Below, piece after piece: positions 14 through 17,298 of a stretch of 64,000 nt of DNA. The translations under genes were made by a program, and so were the position numbers. The notes under the pieces are model-generated. The model ran no database searches, was not told where the DNA came from, and saw only the letters and a list, made by a program, of their open reading frames with translations. Position 1 is the stretch's first letter. Each line of letters opens with the position of its first letter. The DNA comes from an uncultured Mediterraneibacter sp. (GTDB taxonomy: Bacteria > Bacillota > Clostridia > Lachnospirales > Lachnospiraceae), in the NCBI GenBank assembly GCA_944381935.1, contig CALWMN010000011.1, positions 14,030 to 78,029 of the forward strand, read 5' to 3'.

Positions 14-32
14 TTGTAAATTGAATTGACAA
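14..32. promoter_or_regulatory. Candidate repressor operator TTGTAAA-ttgaa-TTGACAA overlapping the -35 of the GRE1 operon promoter
   Basis: Near-palindrome TTGTnAA-N5-TTnACAA; identical half-sites recur at 14747-14765 on the minus strand. Confidence 0.6.
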
Positions 33-54
33 AATATTTGTGTTCTGTTATATT
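26..54 (+). promoter_or_regulatory. Sigma70-type promoter for the activase-GRE1-kinase operon
   Basis: TTGACA(26-31)-17 bp-TATATT(49-54); AAGGAGG SD upstream of ATG 84. Confidence 0.75.
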
Positions 55-83: not shown

Positions 84-812
84 ATGGAGATCCGTATCTT
101 TCAAAAAGGATTCAATTTTTCACAGGACGGACCGGGCAACCGTCTGGTTTACCATCTGCAGGGGTGCAACATGCACTGTCCGTGGTGTTCCAATCCGGAA
201 GGACTGGCCATGCACGGCGGGACATCGTATTCGACAGAGGAACTGATGGATGAGATCCTCCGCAGCAGCCTGATGTTTTTTGACGGGGGCGGGATCACCC
301 TGACCGGCGGTGAAGTTACAATGCAGTTTGACGCCGCAGGAGAATTACTGAAGGCAGCGCACTCCTGTGCGATCCATACGTGTATTGAGACGAACGGGAC
401 ACATCCCCGTCTTCCCGAACTGTTTCCTTATATTGACCATCTCATTATGGACGTCAAACATTACGATCCCGAAAAACACAGGGAAACTACAGGCGTTTCC
501 TGCGAAAATACCTTTCGCAATATAGAGAAGGCGGCTAAAGCCGGCAAAACCCTCGCCCTGCGCATCCCGCTGATCGGCGGATTTAACGCTTCTACAGAAG
601 ATGCCAGGCATTTTTCGGACTTATTCCAAAGGATGCATCTGAAAGGATATGCGACGCTTGAGCTGCTCTGTTACCACGAATACGGGAAATCCAAATATGA
701 AAGCCTGAACCTTCCTTACCTGATGGATGATACCGCCTTTATTTCGGATGAGACCCTTCATGCCTTCCGGGATATCCTGGCAGATTCCGGCATGACGCTT
801 GTCAGTACATGA
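84..812 (+). CDS. Glycyl-radical enzyme activating enzyme (radical SAM), no ferredoxin insert
   Basis: DGPGNR motif, CxxxCxxC (CNMHCPWC), GGGITLTGGE, HTCIETNG, MDVKH, LRIPLIGGFN; directly upstream of a GRE. Confidence 0.93.
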   Translation: MEIRIFQKGFNFSQDGPGNRLVYHLQGCNMHCPWCSNPEGLAMHGGTSYSTEELMDEILRSSLMFFDGGGITLTGGEVTMQFDAAGELLKAAHSCAIHTCIETNGTHPRLPELFPYIDHLIMDVKHYDPEKHRETTGVSCENTFRNIEKAAKAGKTLALRIPLIGGFNASTEDARHFSDLFQRMHLKGYATLELLCYHEYGKSKYESLNLPYLMDDTAFISDETLHAFRDILADSGMTLVST

Positions 813-869
813 CAGGATTCTTCCGGCGGACAGAATCTCACAATTATAAAAAAGAAAGGAACATGACCT

Positions 870-3251
870 ATGTACAAACTTCCCACTCTGACCTGTGACC
901 TTATCACAGACAAAGCAAAAGCGCTCTACAAAGAAGAACGCACTGACCACAAGATCCTCAACGGCTGGTTTTTATCCCGCGAGATCGCCGCTTCGGCAGA
1001 CAGCGAAATGACAGAGACATTTCCTGAGCTGCGCGCCTCACTGGAGCTGAAGAAAATCGTAGAAGAGCTCCCCATCTCGATCAGCGGCAATGCCCTCCTT
1101 GCCGGAACCCAGCGGGATGCATTTGCGGCAAGCTATGCCCTGATCAACCCTGCCTTTGAAGTTGAGAGCTTCCGTGGTTACTGCGATCCCCTCGAGGTAT
1201 ATGACTACGCGACTCCCACCGGGGAGATAACCGCCGCACGGATCGCATCCATGAAAGAATATATGGCGCAGACCGACTGTGTAAAGGCGCTGGCAAAGGT
1301 GTATGAGGATAACAAAGAATATACCGACGAAGTCGCCTTTTTCGTTGAACAGGTGACCGGGCATATGATCCCGGATTTCCGTCCGGCGCTTCGCAATGGC
1401 GTGAAAGCGCTGGCAGAAGAGATTGAGAAGAAATTATCCGATGATTCTTGGAACCTGTCCGAAACTCAGCGGAAGAACCTGGCTGCCATGAAGCAGAGCC
1501 TGGAATGTGCAGTCCTTCTCGCACACCGGTATGCAGACCTGGCGGCAGAGCAGGCGCTGTCCGCCCCGCCGGAACGTGCAGAGGAACTCCGCGCAATGGA
1601 GGCGAACCTGCGCCGCGTTCCCGAATACGGGGCGCGCTCCCTCTGGGAAGCCCTGCAGTCTTATGTTATACTGTGGGAGGTGATGTGCCTGGAACAGGCA
1701 CCGAACCCGTTTGCCTTTTCTGTAGGGAACGCTGACAGGATCTTCGAGCCTTACAGGGCGATGGATGGCCTGCCACGGGAGGATGCCGCCGCTTTGTTCA
1801 AGCATTTCCTCGTGTTCTACAATGTCGGGGAGCGCTCCTGGGCGATCTCCCAGAACATCCTGCTCGGCGGACGTGACCTTCAGGGAAATGACCTTACAAA
1901 TCCGATGACTTACGCCATCCTTGACGCCTACTATGACATGAACCTTCCCCAGCCCATTCTGTCCGTAAAGCTGCACCGGAACACACCCGAGGCCTTTTAT
2001 GAGGAAATGGGGCGGTTTCTGTTTACGCCCGGCTGCCTTACCCCTTCCTTTTTTAACGACGACAGCCTGTTTGAGACACTCAGAGAACACGGCATCGAGG
2101 AGGCGGACCTGCCCGACTATTCTGTGGCAGGCTGCCAGGAGCCTCTGATCATGGGGAAAGATAACGGAAATACGACGAATAGCTGGCTGAACCTGGGAAA
2201 GATCCTGGAACTGACCGTCTCGGGCGGCAGGTCCGCCCTGACCGGAAAACCGATTGGACCGCAGGCCTCCTTTGAGGCGGAGGATCTGCTTGGTCATATA
2301 CAGGAGCTTTTCTATAAAAATGTAGAATTTTTCGCCAAAAAAATGTGCATCGCGGCAAACCGCGCCACGGAAGCCTTATCCCTTATGCCCGTCCCGTTTT
2401 TGAGCTGTTTTATGGGCGGACCGGAGACCGGATACGACACCCGGGACGTCAGGCGCAAAGGAACGAAATACAGCGGAAGCGGATGCCTCATCCACGGATT
2501 ATCCGTGGTTGCCGATTCTTTCGCCGCGGTCTCTCATCTGCTCAAGGACCGCCCGGAAGATGCGCAGAGGCTGATTGACGCCTGCGCCTCCGACTTTGAA
2601 GGGGAAGAAGAGCTTCTGGCATATGTGAAGTCCTGCCCGAAATACGGCAACAACTGCCCTGAGGTGGATCTTCTTGCGGCAGAGATCGTCGACCGGGTAT
2701 CTGAGATCGTACGCAGCCAGAAAAACATGCTGGGGGAAGATTTCCGCCCGGACTGGAGCACGCCCTCCACCCATCTCCTGTACGGCTACTGGGTCGGGGC
2801 AACCCCTGACGGGAGAAGAAGCCGGGAAATGCTCAACTATGGCGTCGACCCGCTGTTTGGGACAGCCGGGAACGGGCTGGGGTTCCGCACGGTCTCTACC
2901 CTCCAGCTTCCATACGGGCAGATGAACGGAGGCTGTGCCTCCCATTTTGGGATTGACCCGAAATATTTTACCGCAGAGGATTACCCGGGAAAAGGCGTTC
3001 AATTTTATAAACGGGTATTAAAACCTCTCTTCTTCAATCCCAAAAACAGCCGGCGCTCCCCCTTCTACCTGTACGTCAATGTGACGACGGCAGATACCCT
3101 GCGCGCTTTGCTGAAAGACCCGAAAAAATATGCCCCCAACGGGGTTTATATCATGCGTATCCACGGGACCTTCGTCAACTTCCTTGACCTCTCTCCCGCG
3201 ATCCAGCAGGATATCATCAAACGGCTCGACCCCGGCTCCACTTCCTGCTGA
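870..3251 (+). CDS. Glycyl radical enzyme (PFL-like fold, not PFL), 793 aa, substrate unknown
   Basis: Cys loop DYSVAGCQEP (Cys422), KYGNN, TPDGR, C-terminal Gly loop MRIHGTFVNF (Gly766) followed by LSPAIQQDIIKR; single Cys rather than the PFL Cys-Cys pair. Confidence 0.88.
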   Translation: MYKLPTLTCDLITDKAKALYKEERTDHKILNGWFLSREIAASADSEMTETFPELRASLELKKIVEELPISISGNALLAGTQRDAFAASYALINPAFEVESFRGYCDPLEVYDYATPTGEITAARIASMKEYMAQTDCVKALAKVYEDNKEYTDEVAFFVEQVTGHMIPDFRPALRNGVKALAEEIEKKLSDDSWNLSETQRKNLAAMKQSLECAVLLAHRYADLAAEQALSAPPERAEELRAMEANLRRVPEYGARSLWEALQSYVILWEVMCLEQAPNPFAFSVGNADRIFEPYRAMDGLPREDAAALFKHFLVFYNVGERSWAISQNILLGGRDLQGNDLTNPMTYAILDAYYDMNLPQPILSVKLHRNTPEAFYEEMGRFLFTPGCLTPSFFNDDSLFETLREHGIEEADLPDYSVAGCQEPLIMGKDNGNTTNSWLNLGKILELTVSGGRSALTGKPIGPQASFEAEDLLGHIQELFYKNVEFFAKKMCIAANRATEALSLMPVPFLSCFMGGPETGYDTRDVRRKGTKYSGSGCLIHGLSVVADSFAAVSHLLKDRPEDAQRLIDACASDFEGEEELLAYVKSCPKYGNNCPEVDLLAAEIVDRVSEIVRSQKNMLGEDFRPDWSTPSTHLLYGYWVGATPDGRRSREMLNYGVDPLFGTAGNGLGFRTVSTLQLPYGQMNGGCASHFGIDPKYFTAEDYPGKGVQFYKRVLKPLFFNPKNSRRSPFYLYVNVTTADTLRALLKDPKKYAPNGVYIMRIHGTFVNFLDLSPAIQQDIIKRLDPGSTSC

Positions 3252-3316
3252 GCCGCCGTCCGCCTCCCGCGGGGAACACTGCCAGAGTTCTGCCGCACAC
3301 CCAAATGCTGAAAACG

Positions 3317-3350
3317 GAAAAGCGAAGCCCATGCCCGGGCTCCGCTTTTC
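3317..3350 (+). terminator. Stem-loop between GRE1 and the kinase (attenuating terminator or mRNA stabiliser)
   Basis: GAAAAGCGAAGCCC / GGGCTCCGCTTTTC arms, 14 bp with one mismatch. Confidence 0.55.
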
Positions 3351-3407
3351 GGATATTATAATAGAAATGGACAGGAACGTTTCCGTGTCCATAGATTGGA
3401 GCAGATT

Positions 3408-4715
3408 ATGAAAACACTTGGCATTGATATCGGCACTACAACGATCAGCGCTGTTGTCCTGGAAGCAGGCAGAGTGGTTTCTTCCCTCACAGTGGCAAAC
3501 GATTCATTTATCGAGACCGGGCACACCTGGGAAAAGATCCAGGATCCGGGGAGGATTCTGGATGCTGCGCTTTCTCTCGTCAGTGAATTGACCGGGGAAC
3601 ACCCGGACACCGAACGGATCGGCGTCACGGGACAGCAGCACGGGATTCTCTATCTGGACAGGAGCGGGGAACCCGTCAGCCCCCTTTATACCTGGCAGGA
3701 CGGCCGCGGCAGCCTGCCATACAAAGGAGAGAAAAGCTACGCCTCATATCTGTCAGAGGCATCCGGCGAGCGCCTCTCCACCGGATTTGGGCTGGTCACG
3801 CATTTCTATAACAGGAAAAACGGACTCGTCCCTGAAACGGCGGTTGTCTTTTGTACGGTCGCGGACTATACTGCCATGAAGCTGTCCGGTTTGAAGACGC
3901 CGGCTGTACATCCCAGCAATGCGGCAAGCTTCGGGCTGTTCGACCTGAAGCTTCAGGATTTCCGCAGGGATATCCTCACAGAAACAGGGATAGATCCCTC
4001 CATCCTCCCTCCAGCCGCTGTATCAGCGTGCATCGGCATGTACCGGGATACCATACCGGTTTATACCGCCATAGGGGATAACCAGGCAAGCTTCCTGGGC
4101 TCCACACAGGGAGCAGAGAACTGTATGCTGGTCAATATCGGAACGGGGGCACAGGTTTCCGTCTACTCCAGAAATTACATCCGGTGCGAATCCCTGGAAA
4201 CACGACCGTTCCTGGATCACGATTATCTGCTCGCCGGCTCGTCCCTCTGCGGTGGAAAAGCGTACGCGCTGCTGGAGACATTTTTCCGAAAAACTGCCGA
4301 GATGGCCCTGGGACATCCTGTCAGGGACTGCTATGCTGCCATGTCCCATATGCTGGATCTGTACCCGGAGCCTGACAATCTACCCGTGATGGAACCCTTC
4401 TTCCAGGGCACGCGCATCGAACCGGACCGCCGGGCATGCATAACCGGGCTGAGTCCTGAGAACTTCCTGCCCCTTCCCCTTATCTATGCCACGATGCACG
4501 GCATGGTAGAAGAACTCTATTCAATGTATGAAAGCTATATCAAAGCCGGGAACCCGGCACCATCTGTCCTGTACGGTTCCGGCAATGGGCTGAGGCTGAA
4601 TCCTCACCTGTGCAAAATTGCGGAAAGCCGTTTCCGTCTGCCTCTGACTCTCTCTGCCAACAAAGAGGAGGCTGCCTGCGGGGCAGCGCTCTTCGCCGAG
4701 AAAGCTGCACCATAA
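3408..4715 (+). CDS. FGGY-family carbohydrate kinase, sedoheptulokinase-like
   Basis: LGIDIGTT, GVTGQQHG, PLYTWQDGRG, STGFG, AIGDNQASFLG, VNIGTGAQVS; ORF track starts at TTG 3396, but ATG 3408 follows GGAG. Confidence 0.8.
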   Translation: MKTLGIDIGTTTISAVVLEAGRVVSSLTVANDSFIETGHTWEKIQDPGRILDAALSLVSELTGEHPDTERIGVTGQQHGILYLDRSGEPVSPLYTWQDGRGSLPYKGEKSYASYLSEASGERLSTGFGLVTHFYNRKNGLVPETAVVFCTVADYTAMKLSGLKTPAVHPSNAASFGLFDLKLQDFRRDILTETGIDPSILPPAAVSACIGMYRDTIPVYTAIGDNQASFLGSTQGAENCMLVNIGTGAQVSVYSRNYIRCESLETRPFLDHDYLLAGSSLCGGKAYALLETFFRKTAEMALGHPVRDCYAAMSHMLDLYPEPDNLPVMEPFFQGTRIEPDRRACITGLSPENFLPLPLIYATMHGMVEELYSMYESYIKAGNPAPSVLYGSGNGLRLNPHLCKIAESRFRLPLTLSANKEEAACGAALFAEKAAP

Positions 4716-4750
4716 CAAAAAGTCCGGGATCCATTTTCCCGGACTTTTTG
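4716..4750. terminator. Bidirectional intrinsic terminator between the two converging GRE operons
   Basis: Perfect 14-bp inverted repeat CAAAAAGTCCGGGA / TCCCGGACTTTTTG, 7-nt loop, A/T tracts on both sides. Confidence 0.9.
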
Positions 4751-4782
4751 CCATATTTTTTCTTTTCTTCTTTCGTGCAGCG

Positions 4783-5712
4783 TCAGATATCATGATATTT
4801 CCGTGACACATGTTCCGGTCTTGCGACCCGGAGGATGTCGTACCACTGCTCTCTTGTCATGCTGTACTTCAGGGCATTTACCGCGTACAGGACTCTCTCC
4901 TTTTTCCCGCTCCCGGTCACAGGGATCACAGTTACAGGGAGGCGGTACAGCCACGCGTACATAACTTCATCAATATTCCCGGCGCCGATCTCCTCCTGGA
5001 TCTCCTTTAAGACTCCGATTGTCTCCAAGTCATCCCGGCTTACATCTGCCCGGTGAAGCGCTCCCCCGCCCACGGGCGAATATGCCATAAGCGGTATTTT
5101 TCTCCTCAGGGCGTCCTCCTGGGTCCCGTCAGCGAGAAAATCCATGCATTTTACACTCATCTGCACCTGGTTGACCAGGAGAGGAATCCCTGTATATGCC
5201 TCCAGTGCTGCCATCTGTTCCGGCAGGAAATTGGATACCCCAAACTTCCTGACCTTTCCGTCCCTGTAAAGCTTATCCATCGCTTCTGCCACCTCGGCGG
5301 GATCCATCAGCGGACACGGCCTGTGGATCAGATACAGATCCACGTGGTCTGTTTTCAGCCGCTTCAGGGATGCCTCGCAGGCAGAGACCAGATGCTCCTT
5401 TGACAGATTATAGGATTCGCTTACAAAGTAAGGCCGTCTGAGCGTATCGTATACGATACCGCCTTTCGTGACAATCTCAATCTTATTCCTTAAGGATGGT
5501 TCCTGTTCAAGTATTTCACCAAACAGCGCCTCGCATCCTCCCTTGCCGTAAATATCTGCGAAATCATAGGTGGTCAGCCCCAGCCCCAGGTACTCGTGGA
5601 GGCGCCCAGAAAGCTCTTTTGGATCCAGCCCCCACTCAAGAAGATTCATCATCCCGATTGTTACCGGCGCCAGGCTTAACTCCTGGTCTAATCTGATTTT
5701 TTCCATTTCCAT
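4783..5712 (-). CDS. Aldo/keto reductase (YdhF/YcsN-like)
   Basis: DFADIYG, IVTKGG, DLYLIHRP, GVSNF, VNQVQMS, MAYSPVGGG; AKR Asp/Tyr/Lys/His tetrad present. Confidence 0.9.
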   Translation of the reverse strand: MEMEKIRLDQELSLAPVTIGMMNLLEWGLDPKELSGRLHEYLGLGLTTYDFADIYGKGGCEALFGEILEQEPSLRNKIEIVTKGGIVYDTLRRPYFVSESYNLSKEHLVSACEASLKRLKTDHVDLYLIHRPCPLMDPAEVAEAMDKLYRDGKVRKFGVSNFLPEQMAALEAYTGIPLLVNQVQMSVKCMDFLADGTQEDALRRKIPLMAYSPVGGGALHRADVSRDDLETIGVLKEIQEEIGAGNIDEVMYAWLYRLPVTVIPVTGSGKKERVLYAVNALKYSMTREQWYDILRVARPEHVSRKYHDI

Positions 5713-5765
5713 TTCTCCTTATCTGCTTATCATTGAAGATCAGCCATATTTTTTCCCGGCTTTCC

Positions 5766-6611
5766 CTAAAGGATTTTGTACTTTACGCCCGCCTTCTCAA
5801 ATGCATCCGCCGGGATTGGCGGGATGTAGTTATCCCCGTCCACATCCCGGAGCGGGTACTCCATCCCTGCCATGACATACTTCGCCCCGGCAAAGGGATT
5901 GTACAAAAGAAACTCCACACGCTCCAGAGCCCCGGCTCCCGACAGCCTCTTAGCAAGCGCCCTTAAATTCTCCTCCCCGTCGTTTAGTCCCGGGATCAGG
6001 GGCATACGGATGAGGAAGGGTTTTTCCTGCGACAACAGGAACGACAGGTTCCTCTGGATCTGTTCATTCCCTTTCCCGGTCAGCTTTTTATGTATCCCGC
6101 TGTCCATGTGCTTGATGTCCAGATAGACCATCGAAGCCTTCTCTGTGACTTTACGGAAAATCTCTTCCTCCGTATAGCCGCAGGTCTCCACAATAGTATG
6201 CACTCCTGCAAGACCGTCCAGCAGCCCAAAGAGGAAGTCCGGCTGCATTGTCGGCTCCCCTCCGGATACCGTGACCCCGCCGCCCTCAAAGAACCGGACC
6301 TGTCCGGTCAGCTCCTGTGCCAGTTCCTCTGCGTCCATGCGCCTCCCTGCCACTTTGATGAGTCCCTGGGGGCATGCCCGGATGCACCGGCCAAAGGGCC
6401 GGCACTCCGGGTGGCTGCACGGCTGTCTGCATCTCCCACAGTGCGTGCAGCCATTTTCCGAAACCATAAGCTGGGGACGCACATCCATCCCCTCCGGGTT
6501 GTGGCACCACAGGCACCTTAACGGGCACCCCTTTAAGAATACCGTCGTGCGTATCCCGGGACCGTCATGTACGGCAAACTCCTTGATATCAAAAACAATC
6601 CCTGTCGCCAT
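5766..6611 (-). CDS. Glycyl-radical enzyme activating enzyme with ferredoxin-like insert
   Basis: HDGPGIRTTVFLKGCPLRCLWCHNPE, insert CTHCGRC...C and CRPFGRCIRACP, GGGVTVSGGEP; immediately downstream of GRE2. Confidence 0.95.
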   Translation of the reverse strand: MATGIVFDIKEFAVHDGPGIRTTVFLKGCPLRCLWCHNPEGMDVRPQLMVSENGCTHCGRCRQPCSHPECRPFGRCIRACPQGLIKVAGRRMDAEELAQELTGQVRFFEGGGVTVSGGEPTMQPDFLFGLLDGLAGVHTIVETCGYTEEEIFRKVTEKASMVYLDIKHMDSGIHKKLTGKGNEQIQRNLSFLLSQEKPFLIRMPLIPGLNDGEENLRALAKRLSGAGALERVEFLLYNPFAGAKYVMAGMEYPLRDVDGDNYIPPIPADAFEKAGVKYKIL

Positions 6612-6624
6612 GCAGAACCCTCCC

Positions 6625-8667
6625 TCAGACTGAGAAATTCTGCCGGGAGATCACATGGTCCTGGTACTCCCGGTCCAGTTCCACAAAGTAGGCGCTCCAT
6701 CCCCAGATCCGCACGATCAGGTTCTTATATTTTTCCGGCTCCTTCTGGGCGGCAAGCAGCTTTTCCCTGTTCACGGCATTTAACTGCAACTGGTGCCCTC
6801 CGTGCCGGATGAACTGCTGTACAAGACGGGCCACTTTCCCCACTCCGTCCCCATCCCAGAACACGGTAGAATGGAACTCCATCGTCAGGGGACCTCCGTT
6901 CACCACACGTGTGAAATCCGGCTTTGTAAAGGATTCGATGACTGACAGGGGTCCTTTGCTCTTTACGAACAGTTCCGGGGCATAGTTTGCGGAAAAGGCT
7001 TCCCCTTTCCTGTGTCCGCTTAAGGTATCGTCCACCTGGTCTGCATACCAGAGATAATACATCGCCGAGCCTGTCCCTGCCCGGACGCATCCGCCCCGCC
7101 CATTCCTTAAGCCCTTTACCGCCTCCCCGAAGTCGTTCAGCAGGCGCACTGCCAGTTCATTCGTGATGGCATTGTTGTCCCCGAATTTCGGCTCCCGGTA
7201 GCGCAGGAATGTCAGGAGGTCTTCCTCTCCCTTCCCTCGTACCACATCCTCTGCCTGCCCTTTCGTGATCTCACCCGTGCCGTATACGGATGCCTGGACT
7301 ACTGCCAGGGAGTCCACCGCCGTGGAGATCCCCACCCCGTGGAAGCCATAATTATTATATCTGCCCCCCAGCGATATGTCCCGGCGCCTCTCCACGCATC
7401 CGTCCATCAGGAGGGACATGAATGGCGCGGGGATCATGTAAAGGTCATGGATGGAGGCGTTGATCCTTTCACACTCCCGCCCCAGCCGTTCCCGGAACTT
7501 CCCGTAAAAGCTCTCAAAATCCGGGGCCCCTTCCAGGTCTTCCAGGACGGCGTCATTGACCAGCCGGGGGAAGTTGACTGCCCCGATATTGGGAATATCC
7601 ATCCCCACCTTCGGCACGATAAACTCCCAGCACGCCGCCACCACATAATCCCGGGCGTCCTCCTCCGCATACCCGCATCCAACAAGTCCCTTTATGACGA
7701 CGTCATCGTTACAGTACTGGGGGAATCCCAATCCCGCCTTTGTAAGCTCCGTCCCCTTCTCATACACTTCTATGGGCGTTTCGCTCCCGGCCCTGATGTT
7801 GATCTTCGGGTCGATCACCTGAAGTTCCCGGGACGCCTCCAGGCACAGCTTAAGAAGCAGGGAATACACTTCTTTCCCGTCCGCTCCCATGCCGCCCAGC
7901 ACCATGCTCTGGCCGTTGTCCCCCTGCTGGATCCCCGGGTACAGGTCACTGTCCCGGTTAAAGGTCAGGAAAAACTCTTCTATCAGCTCCAGGGCCGACT
8001 CCTCATCCAGACGCCCTGCCTCCATGTCCGCCTTGAAATACGGGGCCATGTACTGGTCAAACCTTCCCACTGTATTGTGGTATTCCCCCTCACACCACAG
8101 CGTGAAGTGCAGGATCCGGAAAAACTGCAGTGCCTCCCGGAAAGTCCGCGCTCCCTTATGGGGCACCCTTGCCAGGGTCTCTGCTGCCGCCCTGTTGCCG
8201 GCTTTCTCCGCGGCAGCACGGTACCGACCTGCCAGGCCAAGCACCGCGTCAATGGACCGGATGACACAGCGCAGGAACACGGTCTGGGTTTTATCCGCCC
8301 CTTCCAGCATACGGGCGGCATTTTCCCGCTCCTTGTCCAGTCCGTTTTGGATGACCCTCCCGTAATCCGGCGAGATGTTGCAGACCCTTCCCTGCTCATG
8401 GATGAAATGTGTTTCTTTGATCTTTTCCCATTCTTCATCTGTATAGACGGGAGGCAGCCCGCGCACCGTACGGGTATAGACGATGGTCTCATCGGGCAGT
8501 ATGGGCGGCTCCTCCGCTTCCAGCACCTGGCAGAGCCTCTCTGTCACGCGCTCCATATCCGTAAGCCCTGCCAGCGTCTCTGCCGGCGGGAACTGCCCTT
8601 CTTTGCGGTACCCGTGGTGGTCGCCCCTGCGGGATGCCTCCAGCATCCTTCTGATCCTTTCTTTCAT
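6625..8667 (-). CDS. Glycyl radical enzyme (PFL-like fold, not PFL), compact 680 aa, substrate unknown
   Basis: GRFDQY, GFPQY, Cys loop DYVVAACWEF (Cys346), PKFGDNN, HQLQLN, Gly loop LIVRIWGWSAYF (Gly656). Confidence 0.92.
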   Translation of the reverse strand: MKERIRRMLEASRRGDHHGYRKEGQFPPAETLAGLTDMERVTERLCQVLEAEEPPILPDETIVYTRTVRGLPPVYTDEEWEKIKETHFIHEQGRVCNISPDYGRVIQNGLDKERENAARMLEGADKTQTVFLRCVIRSIDAVLGLAGRYRAAAEKAGNRAAAETLARVPHKGARTFREALQFFRILHFTLWCEGEYHNTVGRFDQYMAPYFKADMEAGRLDEESALELIEEFFLTFNRDSDLYPGIQQGDNGQSMVLGGMGADGKEVYSLLLKLCLEASRELQVIDPKINIRAGSETPIEVYEKGTELTKAGLGFPQYCNDDVVIKGLVGCGYAEEDARDYVVAACWEFIVPKVGMDIPNIGAVNFPRLVNDAVLEDLEGAPDFESFYGKFRERLGRECERINASIHDLYMIPAPFMSLLMDGCVERRRDISLGGRYNNYGFHGVGISTAVDSLAVVQASVYGTGEITKGQAEDVVRGKGEEDLLTFLRYREPKFGDNNAITNELAVRLLNDFGEAVKGLRNGRGGCVRAGTGSAMYYLWYADQVDDTLSGHRKGEAFSANYAPELFVKSKGPLSVIESFTKPDFTRVVNGGPLTMEFHSTVFWDGDGVGKVARLVQQFIRHGGHQLQLNAVNREKLLAAQKEPEKYKNLIVRIWGWSAYFVELDREYQDHVISRQNFSV

Positions 8668-8670
8668 ATG

Positions 8671-9531
8671 CTATAAAATACTGCCGGCAAGCAGGCGCAT
8701 TTTATGTTCCGCGTACTCAGCAAGATCCTTATATGCCTGGGCGTACAGGTTGGCAACCGAATAGCCGAATCCTTCCTGCTGCTGGACGGCCGCTGTTGCC
8801 TTCCCCACGATCTTGACCAGATCTGTGGCAAGGTTCAGCTTTGTGATCCCGTATTTCACCGCTTCTGCCACCTTCTCTTCCGGAGTCCCGGAACCGCCGT
8901 GCATAACAAGCGGGATGGATACCTTTTCTGAAATTTTCTGCAGCCTGGGGATATTAATGCGGGGCGGGAAGCGGTATTCTCCATGTACAGTCCCGATGGA
9001 AAGGGCAAGGATATCCACACCGGTCTGCTCTACAAACAGAGCCGCCTCATCAGGATCGGTCTGCATCGCTTCCGCCTCGTCCACAGACATCTTCTGCTCA
9101 GATCCTGCAATCCTGCCAAGCTCGCCTTCCACCGACACACCGGCTTTGTGTGCATACTCTACTACCTCTGCTGTCCTGGCTACATTTTCTTCAAACGGAT
9201 AAGACGACGCATCGATCATCACAGAGCGGAAGCCGGCATCAATGGCTCTCTTAATGCTCTCGAAATCGCGGAAGTGATCTGCGTGAAGGATCACCGGCAC
9301 ATCCACATTTTCTGCAACTGTCCTTGCCGCTGCAACTGCGTTCCTCTCCCCTCCGAAAAACTTCACCTCTGCATCTCCGATGATATACAGCATCGGAAGT
9401 TTTAATCTCTGGGCAACTTCAGCTATGGACATTCCATAAGCATAATTCCAGAAGCAGAACCCGCCCAGGGCATATTTCCTTTCTCTTGCATCTACAAGAT
9501 ATTCTTTTAAAGCATTCAATTCTTTTGCCAT
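8671..9531 (-). CDS. Class II (metal-dependent) ketose-phosphate aldolase
   Basis: HADH, MIDAS, EGELG, SIGTVHG, LVMHGGSG, KLNLATD; N-terminal FCFWN replaces FNxxN and there is no C-terminal DPR motif. Confidence 0.88.
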   Translation of the reverse strand: MAKELNALKEYLVDARERKYALGGFCFWNYAYGMSIAEVAQRLKLPMLYIIGDAEVKFFGGERNAVAAARTVAENVDVPVILHADHFRDFESIKRAIDAGFRSVMIDASSYPFEENVARTAEVVEYAHKAGVSVEGELGRIAGSEQKMSVDEAEAMQTDPDEAALFVEQTGVDILALSIGTVHGEYRFPPRINIPRLQKISEKVSIPLVMHGGSGTPEEKVAEAVKYGITKLNLATDLVKIVGKATAAVQQQEGFGYSVANLYAQAYKDLAEYAEHKMRLLAGSIL

Positions 9532-9535
9532 CGTA

Positions 9536-10492
9536 TTATTCTCCTTTGTTGTTTTTCAGCAATTGTAATACCTGTGATTTGTCTTTCAGCGCAGTCAGCG
9601 CTCCCTGCTGTGTCACGCTGACGCCTGCCACTGCGTTTGCATACCGGGCAGCGTCCCATATATCCATGTTTTCAGCCGTCAGTCCGGCCATGAACCCTCC
9701 GACGAAGCTGTCGCCTGCTCCGGTGGTATCCCGCACATATTCTGTCTGTGCCGGCGGGAAGACCTCTTCCTGCTTCCCGTCTGTCACATAACACCCCTCT
9801 TTTCCAAGCTTAATGATGACATTCCCACAACCTTTGTCCAGGAAGATCCGGGACATTTTCCCGGGGTCTTTTTCTGACGTAAGATACGCTGCCTCCACAT
9901 AACTGGGAATAAAATAATCGATCAGCGGCAGATTGCGAAAGACAATGTCCCTGCCCTGTGAAAACGAATCGTTCGCGCAGTCCGCAACCGTCAGTGCCCC
10001 CGCCTCTTTTGCCGTTCGGAAGATCTCTGTCACTCCCCCGGAATCAAGACCTTTCAGAAAGAAAAAGCTCCCATAGCTTACGACCGACGCCTGCCTGACA
10101 ATATCCAGGTCAAAGTCTTCCAGGCAGAAAGTCTGATTGTTGCTTCCCGCCCGCCCGAGAAAATGCCGGTCCCCATCCTTTCTCACCAGGGCAAATGTCA
10201 GGGACATGGTATCCTCTTTCGATCTCGTCACATTGGAAATATCGACGCCCGCCTTCTCAAACTCCCCGATTACGTAGTCGCTGAAGCTGTCCTGGCACAG
10301 TTTGCCTGCCGCAGCCGTCCTGCATCCTAACCTTGCGGCAGTAATGCTCTGTATCACCGCCGCTCCTCCAGGTGATGTCCCGACGCCCTGCAGCAGGGTC
10401 GTGTCACGGGAAAATACCGATTCATCCACAGTATACAGGGTCATGTCATATGCCATTGTTCCGATAGAGACAATATCATATTTTTTCTCCAT
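9536..10492 (-). CDS. PfkB/ribokinase-family sugar kinase
   Basis: SPGGAA, ARLG, PSYVEA, IKLGKEG, DTTGAGDSF; ATG 10492 follows GGGAG (ORF track start 10516). Confidence 0.92.
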   Translation of the reverse strand: MEKKYDIVSIGTMAYDMTLYTVDESVFSRDTTLLQGVGTSPGGAAVIQSITAARLGCRTAAAGKLCQDSFSDYVIGEFEKAGVDISNVTRSKEDTMSLTFALVRKDGDRHFLGRAGSNNQTFCLEDFDLDIVRQASVVSYGSFFFLKGLDSGGVTEIFRTAKEAGALTVADCANDSFSQGRDIVFRNLPLIDYFIPSYVEAAYLTSEKDPGKMSRIFLDKGCGNVIIKLGKEGCYVTDGKQEEVFPPAQTEYVRDTTGAGDSFVGGFMAGLTAENMDIWDAARYANAVAGVSVTQQGALTALKDKSQVLQLLKNNKGE

Positions 10493-10525
10493 ATTTTTCT
10501 GCTCCCGTCTTTTCATCAGAGTGTA

Positions 10526-11464
10526 TTACATGATCGGATATCCGGCGGAAAGGTAGATATCATACCAGTCCTCGTAAGTGAGCTCGATCTCTGACGCCCT
10601 GCAGCAGTCTGCAAATCTTTCCTGCTTCGTTGTTCCGCACACAACCTGCATCTGTGCGGGATGCCTTAAGATCCACGCCACTGCTATCGTCGTCTTGTTT
10701 ACCCCGTACTTGCCGCCGACTCTCTCCATCGCCTCGTTTAATTCTTTATAATCCGGGTTGTCGATAAATGTGCCGTCGATAAATCCATGCTGGAAGGGCG
10801 ACCACGCCTGGATCGTGATATCTTTTAACCGGCAGTAGTTCAGAATCCCGCCGTCCCGGTCTGATGCATAGAACTCATGTGTGTTCGTTGCGATCGGCTG
10901 TACGCACATATCCGCGTATGCGATGCTGAACTGCATCTGGTTCACTTCAATCGGAACGGAGCAGTATTTCTGGAGCAGCTCAATGCCGTAGGGCACCTCA
11001 TTGCTGACTCCAAAGTGGAGCACCTTTCCCTGTTTCTTCATGATGTCAAACGCCTCTGCCACTTCTTCCGGCTCAAACAGGGCGTCAGACCTGTGCAGCA
11101 GGAAATAGTCAAGATGGTCGGTCTTCATCCGCTCCAGGGAGTTGTCAAGCGTCTTTAACAGATGCTCTTTGGAATAATTATGGTAGGGCCTTCCGTCTGC
11201 CATGAAGGTAATGCCGCCCTTGGACTGGACGATAAGCTTATCTCTTAGTCCGGGGTTTTCAGCAAAGGTATTGCCGATAATGCTTTCCACAAGTCCCTCC
11301 GGCTTTCCGTAGCAGTTTGCCGTGTCAATAAAATTTGTGCCGTTTTCCATAGCGTTTTCAAACATTGCCGCCACTTCCTTGGTCGACATCGTGTCAAAGC
11401 GCATGGTTCCCTGGATCAGTGCAGGCACTTCGGTTTTGTTCTGCCCTAATTTGATTGTTTTCAT
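10526..11464 (-). CDS. Aldo/keto reductase (YcsN-like)
   Basis: FIDTANCYG, VQSKGG, DYFLLHR, FGVSN, VNQMQFS, IQAWSPFQHG. Confidence 0.9.
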   Translation of the reverse strand: MKTIKLGQNKTEVPALIQGTMRFDTMSTKEVAAMFENAMENGTNFIDTANCYGKPEGLVESIIGNTFAENPGLRDKLIVQSKGGITFMADGRPYHNYSKEHLLKTLDNSLERMKTDHLDYFLLHRSDALFEPEEVAEAFDIMKKQGKVLHFGVSNEVPYGIELLQKYCSVPIEVNQMQFSIAYADMCVQPIATNTHEFYASDRDGGILNYCRLKDITIQAWSPFQHGFIDGTFIDNPDYKELNEAMERVGGKYGVNKTTIAVAWILRHPAQMQVVCGTTKQERFADCCRASEIELTYEDWYDIYLSAGYPIM

Positions 11465-11504
11465 AAGTAAACCTCCTTGTACTTTTGTTCTGGCTTATGT
11501 TAAT

Positions 11505-12335
11505 TTAATTTTTCACAGCTCCCGCTGTCATTCCCGAAATAAAATATTTCTGGAAGAACAATACAATGACGATCACCGGCAGTGAACCGAGAATACTCAT
11601 CGCCATAATCTGGTTCCACTCAAAAGCATACTGTCCCATCAGGGATGCGATCCCGATCGGGACCGTGCGCATTTCATTGGTCCTTGTCAATGTCAGCGCA
11701 TACAGGTATTCATTCCAGCACTGGAAAAACGTATAAAGCCCTACCGATACAAGCCCCGGCACGCTGGACGGGACAAGCACGCCCCAGAGCGCCCTGAATC
11801 TGGATCCGCCGTCGATCAGCACGGCTTCATCCAGCTCTTTGGGCAGGGTGTTCATATATCCTGTCAGCATCAGGATCGCATAAGGCAATGTAAAGACAAT
11901 ATAGGTCAGGATCAGCGCCGGATAGCTGTCATATATCTTCAGCGTTACCACCAGGACCATGTACGGGATCAGCAGGGTGATCGGAGGTACAGCCTGGACA
12001 CTGATGATGACGGTGTTTAATATCTTCTTTCCCGGAAAATTAAACCGGCTGAAGCTGTACGCCGCCAGGAGCGCGATCACAAGCGTGCACGCCACGACGA
12101 CCGCCGCCACAAAGTAAGAGTTAAAGAAAAACCTTACCTTCTCCGGGTCTGTCAATATGTCGATATATGCATCGAAGCTGAAGCTTTCGTCTATGATCTT
12201 CGGCGGCGTAGCGAAAATATTCCGGTTCGACTTAAAGGAACTGGAAAGCAGCCAGAGAACCGGAAGTCCTGAGAACAATGCCGCTATGACCATACCTGCC
12301 AGCAGTAAAATTCGTTTTGCCAAACTTGTCTTCAT
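11505..12335 (-). CDS. Carbohydrate ABC transporter permease
   Basis: Multiple TM segments, EAA loop LPKELDEAVLIDGG. Confidence 0.93.
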   Translation of the reverse strand: MKTSLAKRILLLAGMVIAALFSGLPVLWLLSSSFKSNRNIFATPPKIIDESFSFDAYIDILTDPEKVRFFFNSYFVAAVVVACTLVIALLAAYSFSRFNFPGKKILNTVIISVQAVPPITLLIPYMVLVVTLKIYDSYPALILTYIVFTLPYAILMLTGYMNTLPKELDEAVLIDGGSRFRALWGVLVPSSVPGLVSVGLYTFFQCWNEYLYALTLTRTNEMRTVPIGIASLMGQYAFEWNQIMAMSILGSLPVIVIVLFFQKYFISGMTAGAVKN

Positions 12336-12347
12336 TCTCTCTCCCTC

Positions 12348-13262
12348 CTAGTCTTCTCTCGTCTGGTTTCTCACATAGAAGATCGCCAGCACGATACAGG
12401 CGAGCAGTATGATCACCGCTGCTGCAGAAGCCTGTGAATACTGGTAGCTTGTGAACGCCGTCTTATATACATACGTACTCATCATCTCCGTCGCATGGGA
12501 AGGTCCGCCGGCAGTCAGAAGCCATATCAGTGAAAAATTCTGTGTTGTCCAGATAAAATCCAGCATCGCAATGCTGATCAGGATTGGTTTTAACTGAGGA
12601 AGCGTAATATAGAAGAAACTCTGTACCGAAGACGCCCCGTCAATCTGCGCCGCTTCATACAAATCCGAAGAAATACCCTGAAGTCCGGCAAGAATACTGA
12701 TCATGTAAAACGGGTATCCCGCCCATATGTTAATAAACGTCAGGACCCAAAATACGATCGACCGGTCGCTGAGCCACTCCACAGGTCCCGCTATCATATT
12801 AAACTGTGAAAGGAGATAATTCACAACACCGTTCGCATTTAAAAGCAGCTTCCATAAAATCGCGACAACTGTCGCATTAAACATCCACGGCAGCATATAA
12901 ACCACACGGAACCCCGCTTTTACTCTTGAGCTGAAACACTTCACATTGACCATCAGCGCCAGCGCCATGCCGATCAGAAGGTGGAAGACCACATTGAGAA
13001 CAACAAATATTACTGTATTTTTTATGGAAGAAAGAAATACCCGGTCCGTCAGCACAGTTTTATAATTCTCAAGCCCTACCCATGTCGAATCGTTTGTAAT
13101 AAGTACATTGTCATAAAACGAATAACTGATGACCAATATGATCGGAAGCATCAGCAGCAGACACATCAGGATGACTACCGGCGACAGAAACAAGTACGGC
13201 TCAATCACTCTTCGCAGGCTCTTCTTTACTGGATATTTCGGTTTTTTATTTTTTGACCGCAT
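12348..13262 (-). CDS. Carbohydrate ABC transporter permease
   Basis: EAA loop DLYEAAQIDGAS, ITLPQLKP; ATG 13262 follows AAGGAG (ORF track start 13283). Confidence 0.93.
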   Translation of the reverse strand: MRSKNKKPKYPVKKSLRRVIEPYLFLSPVVILMCLLLMLPIILVISYSFYDNVLITNDSTWVGLENYKTVLTDRVFLSSIKNTVIFVVLNVVFHLLIGMALALMVNVKCFSSRVKAGFRVVYMLPWMFNATVVAILWKLLLNANGVVNYLLSQFNMIAGPVEWLSDRSIVFWVLTFINIWAGYPFYMISILAGLQGISSDLYEAAQIDGASSVQSFFYITLPQLKPILISIAMLDFIWTTQNFSLIWLLTAGGPSHATEMMSTYVYKTAFTSYQYSQASAAAVIILLACIVLAIFYVRNQTRED

Positions 13263-13380
13263 ATATAACTCCTTTTGTCCCAAATTATCCGTTGATTATA
13301 TGTGGGAAATATTATGATAGGCCTGGCGCGGCATCTGTGCCGGCCAAACCTATTGCCAAAATCATAGTCTGTCTCGTTTC

Positions 13381-14670
13381 TTACTCGTATGCTGCGTCAA
13401 ACTCCTGCTGGACAACTTCCATCATTTCCTCTGCCGTAGCATAATCTCCGTCGAGATACATAACCAGGTTTTCATCGAGCGTACGCATCAGCGCCTCGGC
13501 TGTCGGGAAGGAGTAGAACTCTGCAACACCTGTTGTGGTCGCATAAATGTCCTGGATTGCCTGGAAAGCTTCGGAATCATCCGTATATGCCGGCTCGGAT
13601 GCAGCGTTCACCGGGAATCCGCCTGCGTGAACACACAGATCCGCATTCACCTCTGCCCCGAGAAGATACTGGATGAACTGTGCAGCTTCCGTTTTGTGCT
13701 CGCTGTTCTCTGCAATTCCGCATGCCCAGTTGTTAGCTCTCATATAGCTCTGTCCGTCGTAGTCATCTTTATGGGGCATATTAATATAGGTAACATTCAT
13801 TTCCGGAGCCTGCTCCTGAATATTGGTCAGGTGTGCGACTGAGTCCGGCATAAATGCAATACGTCCGTTGACAAATTCCTGAACCTTATCAGCATCTGTC
13901 AGCGTATACATACCGGGAAGCGTTACGCCGTTGTCAAACAATGATTTGAAAAATTCTGTTGTCTCAATCCAGACCTCATTGCCAGCCAGGAATGGTTTTC
14001 CGTCATCCCCGATGATCGAACATCCCGAGTTCCATGCGAATGCAGCATAGTATTCCATACAGGTCGCATTGTCAGTGCTCATATTCATGCCAAATCCATA
14101 TACATTCTCATCTGGATTCGTCACCTGGATACACATATCCAGAAATTCGCTCCATGTTTCCGGCAGTTCGGTAATGCCCGCTTCTTCAAGGATATCCAGG
14201 TTTACTGCCATCAGGCACGGGAAATTCACGATCGGCTGTGCGTAAACTGTACCGTTAACCTCTGTCTGGCTGGAGATATCCGATGTGTCAAAGCCGATCT
14301 CTTCGTAAAGCGCCCCTAGGTCTGCAAGCATGCCCTGTGTCGCGTAGTCATAGATCCAGCCTCCGTCCAGCGCCACAACATCAGCCAGCGTTCCCGCCGC
14401 GGCACTCGCCTGCATCTGCGCCTGGGTATCCGCATACGGATTGCTGAGCAGCTCCACCCGGATACCGGTTTCCTCATAAAAGGCATCACACACGCTCTGG
14501 AGATATCCTTCATCCATCTCATTGTCAAACCACTGCTGAAATTCAATTACCACTTCGCCGTCAGAGCCCGCATCTTCTGTTTCGGAAGAGTCTCCTCCTG
14601 CTCCGCATCCTGCTATCAACGCCATAGACAACGACATTGTCAACAAAACCGAAACCATCTTTTTCATCAT
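13381..14670 (-). CDS. Sugar ABC transporter substrate-binding lipoprotein
   Basis: Signal peptide with lipobox LIAGC, acidic linker, family 1 SBP-like body; upstream of two permeases. Confidence 0.9.
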   Translation of the reverse strand: MMKKMVSVLLTMSLSMALIAGCGAGGDSSETEDAGSDGEVVIEFQQWFDNEMDEGYLQSVCDAFYEETGIRVELLSNPYADTQAQMQASAAAGTLADVVALDGGWIYDYATQGMLADLGALYEEIGFDTSDISSQTEVNGTVYAQPIVNFPCLMAVNLDILEEAGITELPETWSEFLDMCIQVTNPDENVYGFGMNMSTDNATCMEYYAAFAWNSGCSIIGDDGKPFLAGNEVWIETTEFFKSLFDNGVTLPGMYTLTDADKVQEFVNGRIAFMPDSVAHLTNIQEQAPEMNVTYINMPHKDDYDGQSYMRANNWACGIAENSEHKTEAAQFIQYLLGAEVNADLCVHAGGFPVNAASEPAYTDDSEAFQAIQDIYATTTGVAEFYSFPTAEALMRTLDENLVMYLDGDYATAEEMMEVVQQEFDAAYE

Positions 14671-14724
14671 TTTTGCATCCTCCTTTTTTCTTTTTCGCTG
14701 CAGCGGATTATTTTATTTATCCTC

Positions 14725-14753
14725 ATTATATTTTCATCATATTATTTTGTCAA
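14725..14753 (-). promoter_or_regulatory. Consensus sigma70 promoter for the ABC-AKR-PfkB-aldolase-GRE2 operon
   Basis: Minus strand TTGACA(14753-14748)-17 bp-TATAAT(14730-14725). Confidence 0.85.
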
Positions 14754-14765
14754 GTAATTTTACAA
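14747..14765. promoter_or_regulatory. Candidate repressor operator TTGTAAA-attac-TTGACAA (minus strand)
   Basis: Same half-sites and 5-nt spacing as 14-32; overlaps the -35. Confidence 0.6.
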
Positions 14766-14870
14766 TATATCATATTTACAAATTTGTGCCATTTTTTTGT
14801 ACATTATTACCATTATTCAAATTATTATCAATTATTTTTTATTTAAATTATTATTTTTTTGTTTATTTCG

Positions 14871-14899
14871 TTGCAATTATCTTTTCTCTAATTTATAAT
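14871..14899 (+). promoter_or_regulatory. Sigma70-type promoter for the ADP-dependent kinase
   Basis: TTGCAA-17 bp-TATAAT. Confidence 0.65.
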
Positions 14900-14993
14900 T
14901 AATAAAAATTTTCAATCGGGCATTTCCCGGAGCATTTTCCCGGGATCTATCTGAAAACGGCGCATCTGCGCCACTTCAAAGAAAGGAGCCGCC

Positions 14994-16220: not shown

Positions 16221-16253
16221 TAATGGCGGCAACGATCTTTTCCACAAAAAAAG

Positions 16254-16302
16254 TCCCCGCAAGGAGCCACCTCTGCCTGTCAGGCATGGTTCCCTGCGGG
16301 GA
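16254..16302. terminator. Composite hairpin terminator between converging genes
   Basis: TCCCCGCAAGGAGCCA / TGGTTCCCTGCGGGGA with inner TGCCTG/CAGGCA, flanked by A and T tracts. Confidence 0.7.
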
Positions 16303-16322
16303 TATTTTCTTGTCCTATTCTG

Positions 16323-17216: not shown

Positions 17217-17298
17217 ATCCTTCCTCACATTTTTATCTGTTCCCTGTTCCCAACACCTGCTCTGACGCAAAAATGCGTATCAGCATTAATACTTTTTT

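Follow-up and report, generated by a model that had tools for sequence, protein, structure and literature searches.

Glycyl radical enzymes (GREs) run microbiome reactions tied to host health, among them the conversion of choline to trimethylamine, the dehydration of hydroxyproline and the cleavage of sulfonates to sulfite. The gene examined here, GRE2, encodes a compact, oxygen-sensitive GRE and lies, together with the gene of its activase AE2, on the minus strand of a 64,000-nucleotide stretch of an uncultured Mediterraneibacter sp. genome (assembly GCA_944381935.1, contig CALWMN010000011.1, positions 14,030 to 78,029), the whole of which we call the window and to which coordinates refer unless another locus is named. 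A 2026 review of the superfamily stresses that whole GRE clades are without an assigned function, and it names no enzyme of the kind described below (PMC13450708).

The best sequence and fold match to GRE2 is the glycerol dehydratase (GD) DhaB1 of C. butyricum (PDB 1R8W/1R9D; E 1.8e-64, 30% identity over 579 aligned columns), and both GD and the GRE 1,2-propanediol dehydratase (5I2G, 9RCO-9RCQ) are matched at TMq 0.85-0.88. GD carries the radical Gly, the catalytic Cys and the Glu of the C-x-E (CXE) motif at the same places and has a TIGR02494-type activase, but GRE2 is ~107 amino acids (aa) shorter (~67 N-terminal plus loops), and no 1,3-propanediol dehydrogenase or microcompartment context is present at GRE2. 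CutC (PDB 5FAU) is equally close in fold (TMq 0.88) and combines the CXE motif with a 1,2-elimination mechanism; it shares, however, only 21-22% identity, its model TIGR04394 scores GRE2 at 196 bits against a cut-off of 1050, and the locus has no cut-cluster or microcompartment context. YbiW and PflD (PDB 8ID7, 8ID0, 8YJO) are the 1,5-anhydroglucitol-6-phosphate/1,5-anhydromannitol-6-phosphate C-O lyases of 'anhydroglycolysis' (PMC13450708). The likeness here lies in CXE-type GREs acting on sugars, in a pathway logic of kinase, aldolase and reductase, in the fold (TMq 0.85-0.87) and in the service of two GREs to one pathway, as GRE1, a second GRE in the window, and GRE2 may do. YbiW and PflD are nevertheless only 25-27% identical to GRE2, with a long tree branch between, and the PflD equivalog model NF007437 scores GRE2 at 214.9 bits against a cut-off of 1109. 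Their pathways use the phosphotransferase system (PTS) and Fsa-type aldolases (frw-PTS/fsaB and fsaA in E. coli), whereas here there is an ATP-binding cassette (ABC) importer and a class II aldolase of the dihydroxyacetone phosphate (DHAP) type. Their conserved strand-1 His is Asn in GRE2, and their basic loop and strand-9 Lys are replaced by QQGDNG and Glu.

The features that bear on GRE2 itself are as follows.

6625..8667, minus strand: GRE2, compact glycyl radical enzyme of 680 aa, with a barrel like that of pyruvate formate-lyase (PFL) and a glycyl radical domain (open reading frame (ORF) and translation, Pfam, AF2, Foldseek)
5766..6611, minus strand: AE2, radical S-adenosylmethionine (SAM) GRE activase of 281 aa with a compact 7-Cys insert at residues 55-80 (TIGR02494, 257.7 bits)
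7621..7638, minus strand: Cys loop A-A-C346-W-E348-F, with the predicted thiyl radical Cys and CXE Glu (translation; aligns to GD C433/E435)
6694..6711, minus strand: Gly loop R-I-W-G656-W-S, with the predicted radical Gly between two Trp (translation; aligns to GD G763)
7906..7929, minus strand: family-specific invariant loop QQGDNGQS, ahead of barrel strand 3 (invariant alignment columns)

A compact glycyl radical enzyme with tryptophan-rich loops

An earlier note on this DNA, made from the sequence alone, had described GRE2 as a compact 680-aa GRE with Trp-rich loops, AACWEF in place of GCVEP and RIWGWS in place of RVAGYS, and as about 100 aa shorter than typical eliminase GREs. Translation and comparison with GD bear out each of these points, the full lengths being 787 aa for GD, 765 aa for PflD and 810 aa for YbiW. 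Some 67 of the ~100 missing residues are N-terminal (GRE2 residue 94 aligns to GD residue 161), and the remainder are internal loops, including a ~47-residue gap relative to PflD and YbiW between 'HEQGRVC' and 'NISPDYG'. The residue before the radical Gly is Trp in GRE2, where GD, PflD, YbiW, GRE1 and three further GREs have A, S, T, G or H.

Pfam places GRE2 among the GREs (PF02901, 281 bits; PF01228, 65.5 bits against a cut-off of 22.2), yet it reaches the cut-off of no NCBIfam model, and its equivalog scores lie 4-20 fold under theirs. Models for HypD, sulfopropanediol dehydratase, PflD, CutC and the decarboxylases give 150-246 bits against cut-offs of 1000-1150, and the PFL2/glycerol dehydratase subfamily model TIGR01774 gives 268.6 bits against 678.2; by NCBI's own model GRE2 would stand as a separate clade and not as a member of TIGR01774. 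GRE2 matches no characterised GRE closely, the nearest PDB entry, GD, being only 30% identical in the HMMER alignment.

An AF2 model built from 116 family sequences (pLDDT 93.5, pTM 0.93) contains the ten-stranded beta/alpha barrel of the superfamily. Foldseek matched it to more than 40 GRE structures, GD, CutC, propanediol dehydratase, PflD and HypD among them, with TMq 0.85-0.88 and prob 1.00 at 17-24% identity; GRE2 therefore has a canonical GRE barrel, at a roughly equal distance from every characterised eliminase and isomerase. The Cys and Gly loops were placed by alignment, C346 falling on GD C433 and G656, in the loop RIWGWS, on GD G763. A C-x-E motif on the Cys loop is a feature of GRE 1,2-eliminases and isomerases (PMC13450708), and in GRE2 it is present as C346-W-E348, invariant in the 116 sequences.

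AE2, with its CX3CX2C motif, is encoded 13 bp downstream of GRE2 and is preceded by a strong Shine-Dalgarno sequence, GAGGGAGGG. Both ORFs are intact, with no sign of pseudogenisation. The database entry for GRE2 begins at Met8 (673 aa), which has the better Shine-Dalgarno sequence; we favour 680 aa because residues 2-7 are conserved in homologues. Judged by these sequence features, the best explanation is that GRE2 and AE2 would form a functional GRE and its radical-SAM activase.

GRE2 is not a pyruvate formate-lyase

As the earlier note had foreseen, automated pipelines name the homologues 'pyruvate formate lyase family' or 'formate C-acetyltransferase'. We give next to no credence to the view that GRE2 is, as these names have it, a pyruvate formate-lyase or 2-ketoacid formate-lyase; the label draws on database names only, plus Pfam PFL-like membership. 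GRE2 and PflB (PDB 1H16/2PFL) share a superfamily, a glycyl radical domain and the name given by the pipelines, but PflB has a Cys-Cys pair and lacks the CXE Glu, whereas the AACWE of GRE2 has one Cys followed by x-Glu and no such pair, the point on which the earlier note had itself argued against PFL, and HMMER aligns only a C-terminal part of ~185 residues with PflB (E 6e-17). The PFL model TIGR01255 gives GRE2 52-60 bits against a cut-off of 994.2, while a true PFL on another contig of the same genome (3.04 Mb, 54 contigs) scores 1165.7 bits. The residues of GRE2 aligned to carboxylate-binding positions are Asn, and the sugar-related gene context also speaks against PFL. On the single Cys, the TIGR01255 score and the true PFL elsewhere in the genome, PFL identity was rejected.

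The CWE/WGW clade

GRE2 belongs to a large, compact and so far uncharacterised clade, which we name 'CWE/WGW' after its loops. A scan of species-representative genomes, one per prokaryotic species, returned at least 587 relatives, which among the matches listed are mostly from Clostridia, with others in Bacteroidota (Prolixibacteraceae, Paludibacter), Lentisphaerae, Verrucomicrobia and Brevinematales. Some of the carriers are in culture, such as Hungatella hathewayi DSM 13479, Acetatifactor aquisgranensis DSM 110981, Ructibacterium gallinarum DSM 107454, Diplocloster agilis and Yeguia hominis. The top 120 database clusters share 53-76% identity with GRE2; most are 678-719 aa long, and those that have a name are called only 'pyruvate formate lyase family'.

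The loops are not a matter of chance: all 83 members examined (from 80+ genomes) have AACWE[FYTL] and R[IV]WGWS, whereas four unrelated GREs at the same loci have ordinary Cys and Gly loops. In the 116-sequence alignment C346, W347, E348, W655, G656, W657, N97, N360 and the loop Q247-x-G-D-N-G-Q-S254 are invariant, as are Y318, Y538, W540 and E597, and N198 is near-invariant (>=90%). We define the clade by a length of 650-700 aa, an AACWE Cys loop, an R[IV]WGWS Gly loop, a QxGDNGQS loop and N97, N198 and N360, all of which are present in GRE2. It is monophyletic with 100% SH-aLRT against PflD/YbiW, from which a long branch separates it, and the sister of GRE2 in the tree is a Yeguia hominis protein (72% identity). 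No relative was found at E <= 1e-100 in 24 same-genus or 16 same-order genomes, and GRE2 is accessory in this genome.

Other GREs were also seen beside family members. Three loci hold unrelated ones (L065, a 652-aa ORF that is the first gene; L068, 766 aa; L077, 732 aa), and the one of 652 aa (VGGCDEDG/RVTGFS) represents another type of short GRE. Several gut Clostridia stack different GREs within one sugar locus.

Insertion of GRE2-AE2 into a conserved cassette

GRE2 and AE2 are part of a tightly packed minus-strand operon (4783-14670) that runs substrate-binding protein (SBP), two permeases, aldo/keto reductase 1 (AKR1), PfkB kinase, class II aldolase, GRE2, AE2 and AKR2. Its features, and those that flank it, are listed here.

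5728..8670, minus strand: GRE2-AE2 insertion of 2,943 bp relative to the GRE2-less cassette of locus L093 (blastn colinearity, GC)
8671..9531, minus strand: class II (Zn, DHAP-type) ketose-phosphate aldolase of the host cassette (PF01116, 282 bits; TIGR00167, 237 bits, above the cut-off of 215.6)
9536..10516, minus strand: PfkB-family sugar kinase, YdjH-like (PF00294; best PDB match E. coli YdjH 3h49)
10526..11464, minus strand: AKR1, aldo/keto reductase of the cassette (PF00248, 176 bits)
11505..14670, minus strand: CUT1-type ABC importer, with SBP at 13381-14670 and permeases at 12348-13283 and 11505-12335 (Pfam SBP_bac_1/8, BPD_transp_1)
4783..5712, minus strand: AKR2, YdhF-like aldo/keto reductase, last gene of the operon (PF00248, 162 bits; PDB YdhF 1og6, E 5e-65)
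84-4715, plus strand: AE1-GRE1-FGGY operon, GRE1 having an RIHGT loop (gene order)
14994-16220, divergent: ADP-PFK/GK-like kinase (gene layout)
16323-17270, minus strand: RpiR-type (HTH_6/SIS) regulator, beyond the ADP-PFK/GK-like kinase (gene layout)
17404-18423, plus strand: second class II aldolase, beyond the ADP-PFK/GK-like kinase (gene layout)

The short gaps to which the earlier note had drawn attention are there, 3 bp between the aldolase stop and the GRE2 start (8668-8670) and 4 bp between the PfkB stop and the aldolase start (9532-9535). The same cassette, defined by aldolase orthologues at 70-92% identity, was found in other genomes. In L093, a 76%-identical relative, the aldolase stands directly next to AKR2 without GRE2. 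By blastn, window 14912..8671 is colinear with L093 3662..9934 and window 5727..3390 with L093 9937..12306; it is therefore exactly GRE2-AE2 (5728-8670) that is inserted between the aldolase stop and the ribosome-binding region of AKR2. The inserted module has a GC content of 57.6% (GC at third codon positions, GC3, 0.70-0.72), against 50-52% (GC3 0.54-0.65) in the genes of the cassette.

The composition of the cassette varies between loci. L093 runs second class II aldolase, RpiR-type regulator, divergent ADP-PFK/GK-like kinase, SBP, two permeases, AKR1, PfkB, aldolase and AKR2, and converges on FGGY-GRE1-AE1. L096 is a minimal version with only the ABC importer, PfkB, aldolase and AKR2, to which L095 adds AKR1 and AE1-GRE1-FGGY, and in all three loci AKR2 directly follows the aldolase. 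In L094 the whole set is in one operon, with a family GRE and its activase between AKR1 and AE1, whilst in L066 the cassette carries an extra AKR and a mutarotase (GalM) and the family GRE is convergent to it. Most cassette proteins of L094 and L066 share 57-87% identity with those of the window, but the GRE2-type proteins of these loci share only 51% with GRE2 and fall in different basal clades of the tree. Three cassette-bearing genomes have thus recruited members of three different clades (only 51% identical to one another), each at a different position.

GRE2-AE2 is a mobile module, repeatedly plugged into one kinase/aldolase/AKR cassette that also exists without it, and its features are best explained if this 2.9-kb, two-gene module was horizontally acquired. 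Since the family was joined to the cassette at least three times, we take the functional link to be real and one function to be shared across the family. The GRE-less cassettes and the repeated recruitment imply that kinase and aldolase can do without GRE2, and because GRE2-AE2 was inserted into a pre-existing cassette, its adjacency to them is secondary.

At a larger scale, GC is 54-57% over the two GRE operons (window 2000-10000) and 47% just beyond (12000-18000); given this step and the lack of GRE2 in all 24 congeners, the GRE island looks horizontally acquired. A more constant GRE partner of the cassette is AE1-GRE1-FGGY (L093 10983-15528, L094 4552-8998, L095 11905-16371), present also in genomes without GRE2, and the GRE1 of L094 is 68% identical to that of the window. 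In L095 both AKR1 (127 + 171 aa ORFs, 7908-8850) and the GRE1 homologue (551 + 242 aa ORFs, 12672-15045) are split, through decay or assembly frameshifts, and a transposase fragment lies nearby.

Gene neighbourhoods across the family

We tallied ~225 co-directional, closely spaced neighbours of family members, using simple longest-ORF gene calls. The activase is the only constant neighbour. The commonest catalytic neighbours are Melibiase/GH36 (11), Raffinose_syn-like GH36 relatives (11), GDSL esterases (9) and GH51 arabinofuranosidases (4), followed by aldose 1-epimerase (3, with 5 loci overall) and GH127 (2), whilst kinases are rare (FGGY 2, glycerate kinase 2). ABC and major facilitator superfamily (MFS) sugar importers and LacI/AraC regulators are frequent. 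Among the nearest homologues the arrangements are LacI-GRE-AE, AraC/ABC/GH51-GRE-AE and AraC beside GRE-AE-GH51, and closely related Bacteroidota GREs have as neighbours either a GH51 gene or an alpha-galactosidase-like one, together with genes for GalM and an MFS transporter.

One locus, L002 (7414-8761 and 12936-16579), has microcompartment shell genes (EutN/CcmL three times, BMC) ahead of a family GRE-AE pair, with a ureidoglycolate-lyase-like cupin and the Leloir genes GalT, GalK and GalE behind it. No other microcompartment association was seen among the family loci.

Active site, substrate and rival explanations

Aligned with GD, GRE2 carries N198, N360 and G533 in place of S282, D447 and Y640, which are glycerol contacts in GD. 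GD H281 is kept as H197. GD K704, also Lys in PflD and YbiW, corresponds to the invariant E597, and the basic stretch ahead of strand 3 in PflD and YbiW ('SSARYF', 'SHSKAS') to QQGDNG; two basic positions of GD, PflD and YbiW are acidic in GRE2. The acid that protonates the leaving hydroxyl in GD, His164 (PMC13450708), is also His in PflD, YbiW and GRE1 and is Asn97 in GRE2, which on this alignment retains none of the four residues (His164, S282, D447, Y640) that mark a glycerol dehydratase. With many invariant Asn, Gln, His, Asp and Glu residues, Gly in place of Tyr and no basic residue gained, the site would suit a sugar-sized neutral ligand with several hydroxyls better than one carrying a phosphate or a carboxylate. 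In the AF2 model the QQGDNGQS loop coincides in part with the block of lowest confidence (residues 241-250, pLDDT 63), as would suit a mobile substrate lid.

Our best explanation, which we hold tentatively, is that GRE2 is a C-O lyase or dehydratase of a free, uncharged, plant-derived arabino/galacto-type sugar or alditol; the AKRs of the cassette would then probably either process the carbonyl product or supply the alditol. Most likely the substrate is a polyhydroxy compound the size of a sugar that enters the cell without being phosphorylated; pyruvate is excluded, and a sugar phosphate is improbable. An eliminase/isomerase mechanism is indicated because the Gly/Cys/Glu triad is retained and invariant. 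By homology, AE2 would put a radical on Gly656, from which it would be handed to Cys346; the thiyl radical would take hydrogen from a hydroxyl-bearing carbon, Glu348 would deprotonate that hydroxyl to give a ketyl radical, and the neighbouring C-O bond would be cleaved (by beta-scission, as dehydration or ether/ring opening) before the hydrogen is returned, leaving a deoxy-carbonyl product. The substrate would be freed by glycosidases elsewhere in the family and imported by the ABC system in this genome, and the arabino/galacto type is favoured because L-arabinose and D-galactose share their C1-C4 configuration. A bolder version, possible though somewhat unlikely, is that the clade comprises the first GREs to act directly on free, unphosphorylated arabino/galacto aldoses or alditols, a so far undescribed radical entry (by dehydration or ring opening) to anaerobic plant-sugar catabolism, with a remodelled radical-transfer core of three invariant Trp (W347, W655, W657) around the Gly and Cys.

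Several observations weigh against this explanation. The genome has canonical AraA and GalK, so that plain arabinose or galactose needs no radical route, and we marked down the idea of GRE2 as the sole L-arabinose/galactose route on that ground. A GRE dehydration leaves CH2 or CH3 beside the new carbonyl, and the product is therefore not a substrate for a ketose 1-kinase and a DHAP aldolase. Three kinases and an RpiR/SIS-type regulator at the cassette give room for phosphorylated intermediates, in three Bacteroidota loci the gene after the GRE encodes a HAD phosphatase, and many loci consist of regulator, GRE and AE only, with no dedicated downstream enzyme. No characterised clade member, and none with biochemistry, was found in literature searches or in the 2026 GRE review (PMC13450708), and the active-site mapping is a sequence alignment only. 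Two further candidates were set aside: GRE2 as the supplier of a ketose to PfkB and the aldolase, rejected because a deoxy carbon always lies beside the carbonyl of the product, which is therefore not the 3,4-dihydroxy-2-ketose that these two enzymes need, and a myo-inositol route through an IolC/IolJ-like kinase/aldolase pair, dropped for want of support and of IolD/IolB-type genes.

The same deoxy-carbon constraint, together with the GRE-less cassettes, keeps alive an alternative that we think unlikely, in which GRE2 is a small-polyol dehydratase working after the aldolase. A ketose would be phosphorylated at C1 and cleaved to DHAP and an aldehyde (glycolaldehyde, glyceraldehyde, lactaldehyde or a tetrose), an AKR would reduce the aldehyde, GRE2 would dehydrate the resulting diol or polyol, and a second AKR would reduce the dehydration product, the net effect being an NAD(P)H sink like the conversion of glycerol to 1,3-propanediol. 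The minimal cassette of L096 works without a GRE, as would be expected if GREs are add-ons downstream or alongside; the order aldolase-GRE2-AE2-AKR2 and the two to three AKRs fit, GRE products are chemically unable to feed the kinase/aldolase pair, minimal GRE-AE loci would require only generic reductases downstream, and the best sequence and fold matches are glycerol and 1,2-propanediol dehydratases. All four GD glycerol contacts are however replaced (H164N, S282N, D447N, Y640G), the many invariant polar residues and the Tyr-to-Gly change suggest a larger pocket, and a small diol is hard to reconcile with the LacI/AraC regulators, glycosidases, GalM and sugar importers found next to GRE-AE pairs that lack an aldolase or AKR.

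The earlier note had read the tight coupling of GRE2 to the aldolase and PfkB genes as a sign of a phosphorylated-sugar substrate. Spelled out, GRE2 would act on a sugar or anhydro-alditol phosphorylated by the PfkB, FGGY or ADP-type kinase, as YbiW/PflD do on 1,5-anhydrohexitol 6-phosphates, and the aldolase would cleave the product. YbiW/PflD, followed by an Fsa aldolase and then a reductase, provide the precedent (PMC13450708), the locus does hold three kinases and an RpiR/SIS regulator, and the HAD phosphatase adjoins the GRE in the three Bacteroidota loci as YbiV adjoins YbiW. The adjacency is real but arose by insertion, and the substrate drawn from it fared less well: when the neighbourhood check that the note had proposed was run on the family, kinases proved rare, and glycosidases, mutarotase and ABC or MFS importers, not PTS, dominated. 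Ring opening or dehydration would give 1- or 3-deoxy-ketoses unsuited to a DHAP-type class II aldolase, the aligned contact positions in GRE2 are Asn, with Glu/Asp at Lys/Arg positions of PflD, YbiW and GD, and the PflD model score is far under its cut-off; we regard a phosphorylated substrate as distinctly unlikely. More improbable still is another radical chemistry on a sugar-derived substrate, such as the elimination of a C-N bond in an amino sugar, the loss of an O-methyl or other ether group (e.g. from methylated cyclitols or alpha-galactoside-released sugars) or direct glycoside cleavage. The additional acidic D250 and E597 and the Trp/Tyr-rich invariant core (W347, W655, W657, Y318, Y538, W540) point in this direction, resembling the cation-binding aromatic and acidic pocket of CutC; GH36/Raffinose_syn-like partners could free polyol or cyclitol aglycones, and GH109-like genes occur in two loci. 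This chemistry is argued purely by inference, and no deacetylase, deaminase or methyl-handling genes recur in the family neighbourhoods. Between these alternatives, a C-O lyase or dehydratase of a free sugar or alditol is the explanation that we prefer.

The activase and its Cys-rich insert

AE2 is a standard TIGR02494 activase (cut-off 174.35 bits), with the radical-SAM CX3CX2C motif CPLRCLWC at 6504-6527. Its insert, CTHCGRCRQPCSHPECRPFGRCIRAC, is an unusually compact 27-residue sequence of the form C-x2-C-x2-C-x3-C-x4-C-x2-F-x2-C-x3-C-P, with CRPFGRC at 6384-6404. The earlier note had pointed out the Phe in place of a Cys; it does replace the second Cys of the second CxxCxxCxxxC motif, but it is a trait of the clade and no local oddity, since among 69 family activases most of the Clostridial ones share this 7-Cys form, with Phe, Leu or Tyr at the sixth Cys. 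Activases of Bacteroidota and some others in the family keep all eight Cys, whilst three (L020, L050, L021) have no insert at all, with 45-46 residues and 0-1 Cys between the CX3CX2C and GGE motifs. Because these three are entirely without the Cys-rich insert, the auxiliary cluster(s) are probably dispensable for activating this GRE family. The activase is adjacent to the GRE in 70 of 84 family loci, the remainder being mostly at contig ends.

Other genes and regulation at the locus

The PfkB kinase matches YdjH (3h49) at E 8.8e-46, the next PDB match being at 5e-19, with 31% identity, and the aldolase is 37% identical to E. coli YdjI; the specificity of YdjH/YdjI is taken from the RefSeq product names. 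AKR1 orthologues in L094 and L066 share 80-83% identity with that of the window, and ABC importer orthologues in L066 share 72-81%. In PDB searches the SBP returned weak matches to maltose/sugar SBPs, and both AKRs returned YdhF or aryl-alcohol dehydrogenase.

An element of the form TTGTAAA-N5-TTGACAAAAT, with TTGACA inside as the -35 box, precedes both the AE1/GRE1 operon (14-36, plus strand) and the SBP...AKR2 operon (14740-14765, minus strand); it resembles an operator common to both, and the two GRE operons may thus make up one regulon. The trio of RpiR-type regulator, second class II aldolase and ADP-PFK/GK-like kinase flanks the cassette in L093 as well. The regulator is a likely sugar-phosphate sensor and may control the cassette.

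Significance

By its sequence, GRE2 would represent a motif-divergent, functionally unassigned new subfamily of a known kind of enzyme. CWE/WGW is one of the larger unassigned GRE clades, with relatives in gut, rumen and sediment Clostridia and in Bacteroidota, Verrucomicrobia and Lentisphaerae; its members consistently carry the wrong label of PFL, and it departs from the textbook Gly- and Cys-loop signatures by which GREs are recognised. As cassettes exist with and without the module, they can be compared to find the substrate. With the reaction assigned, thousands of annotations would be put right, and a new anaerobic route for the use of plant carbohydrates or polyols could come to light.

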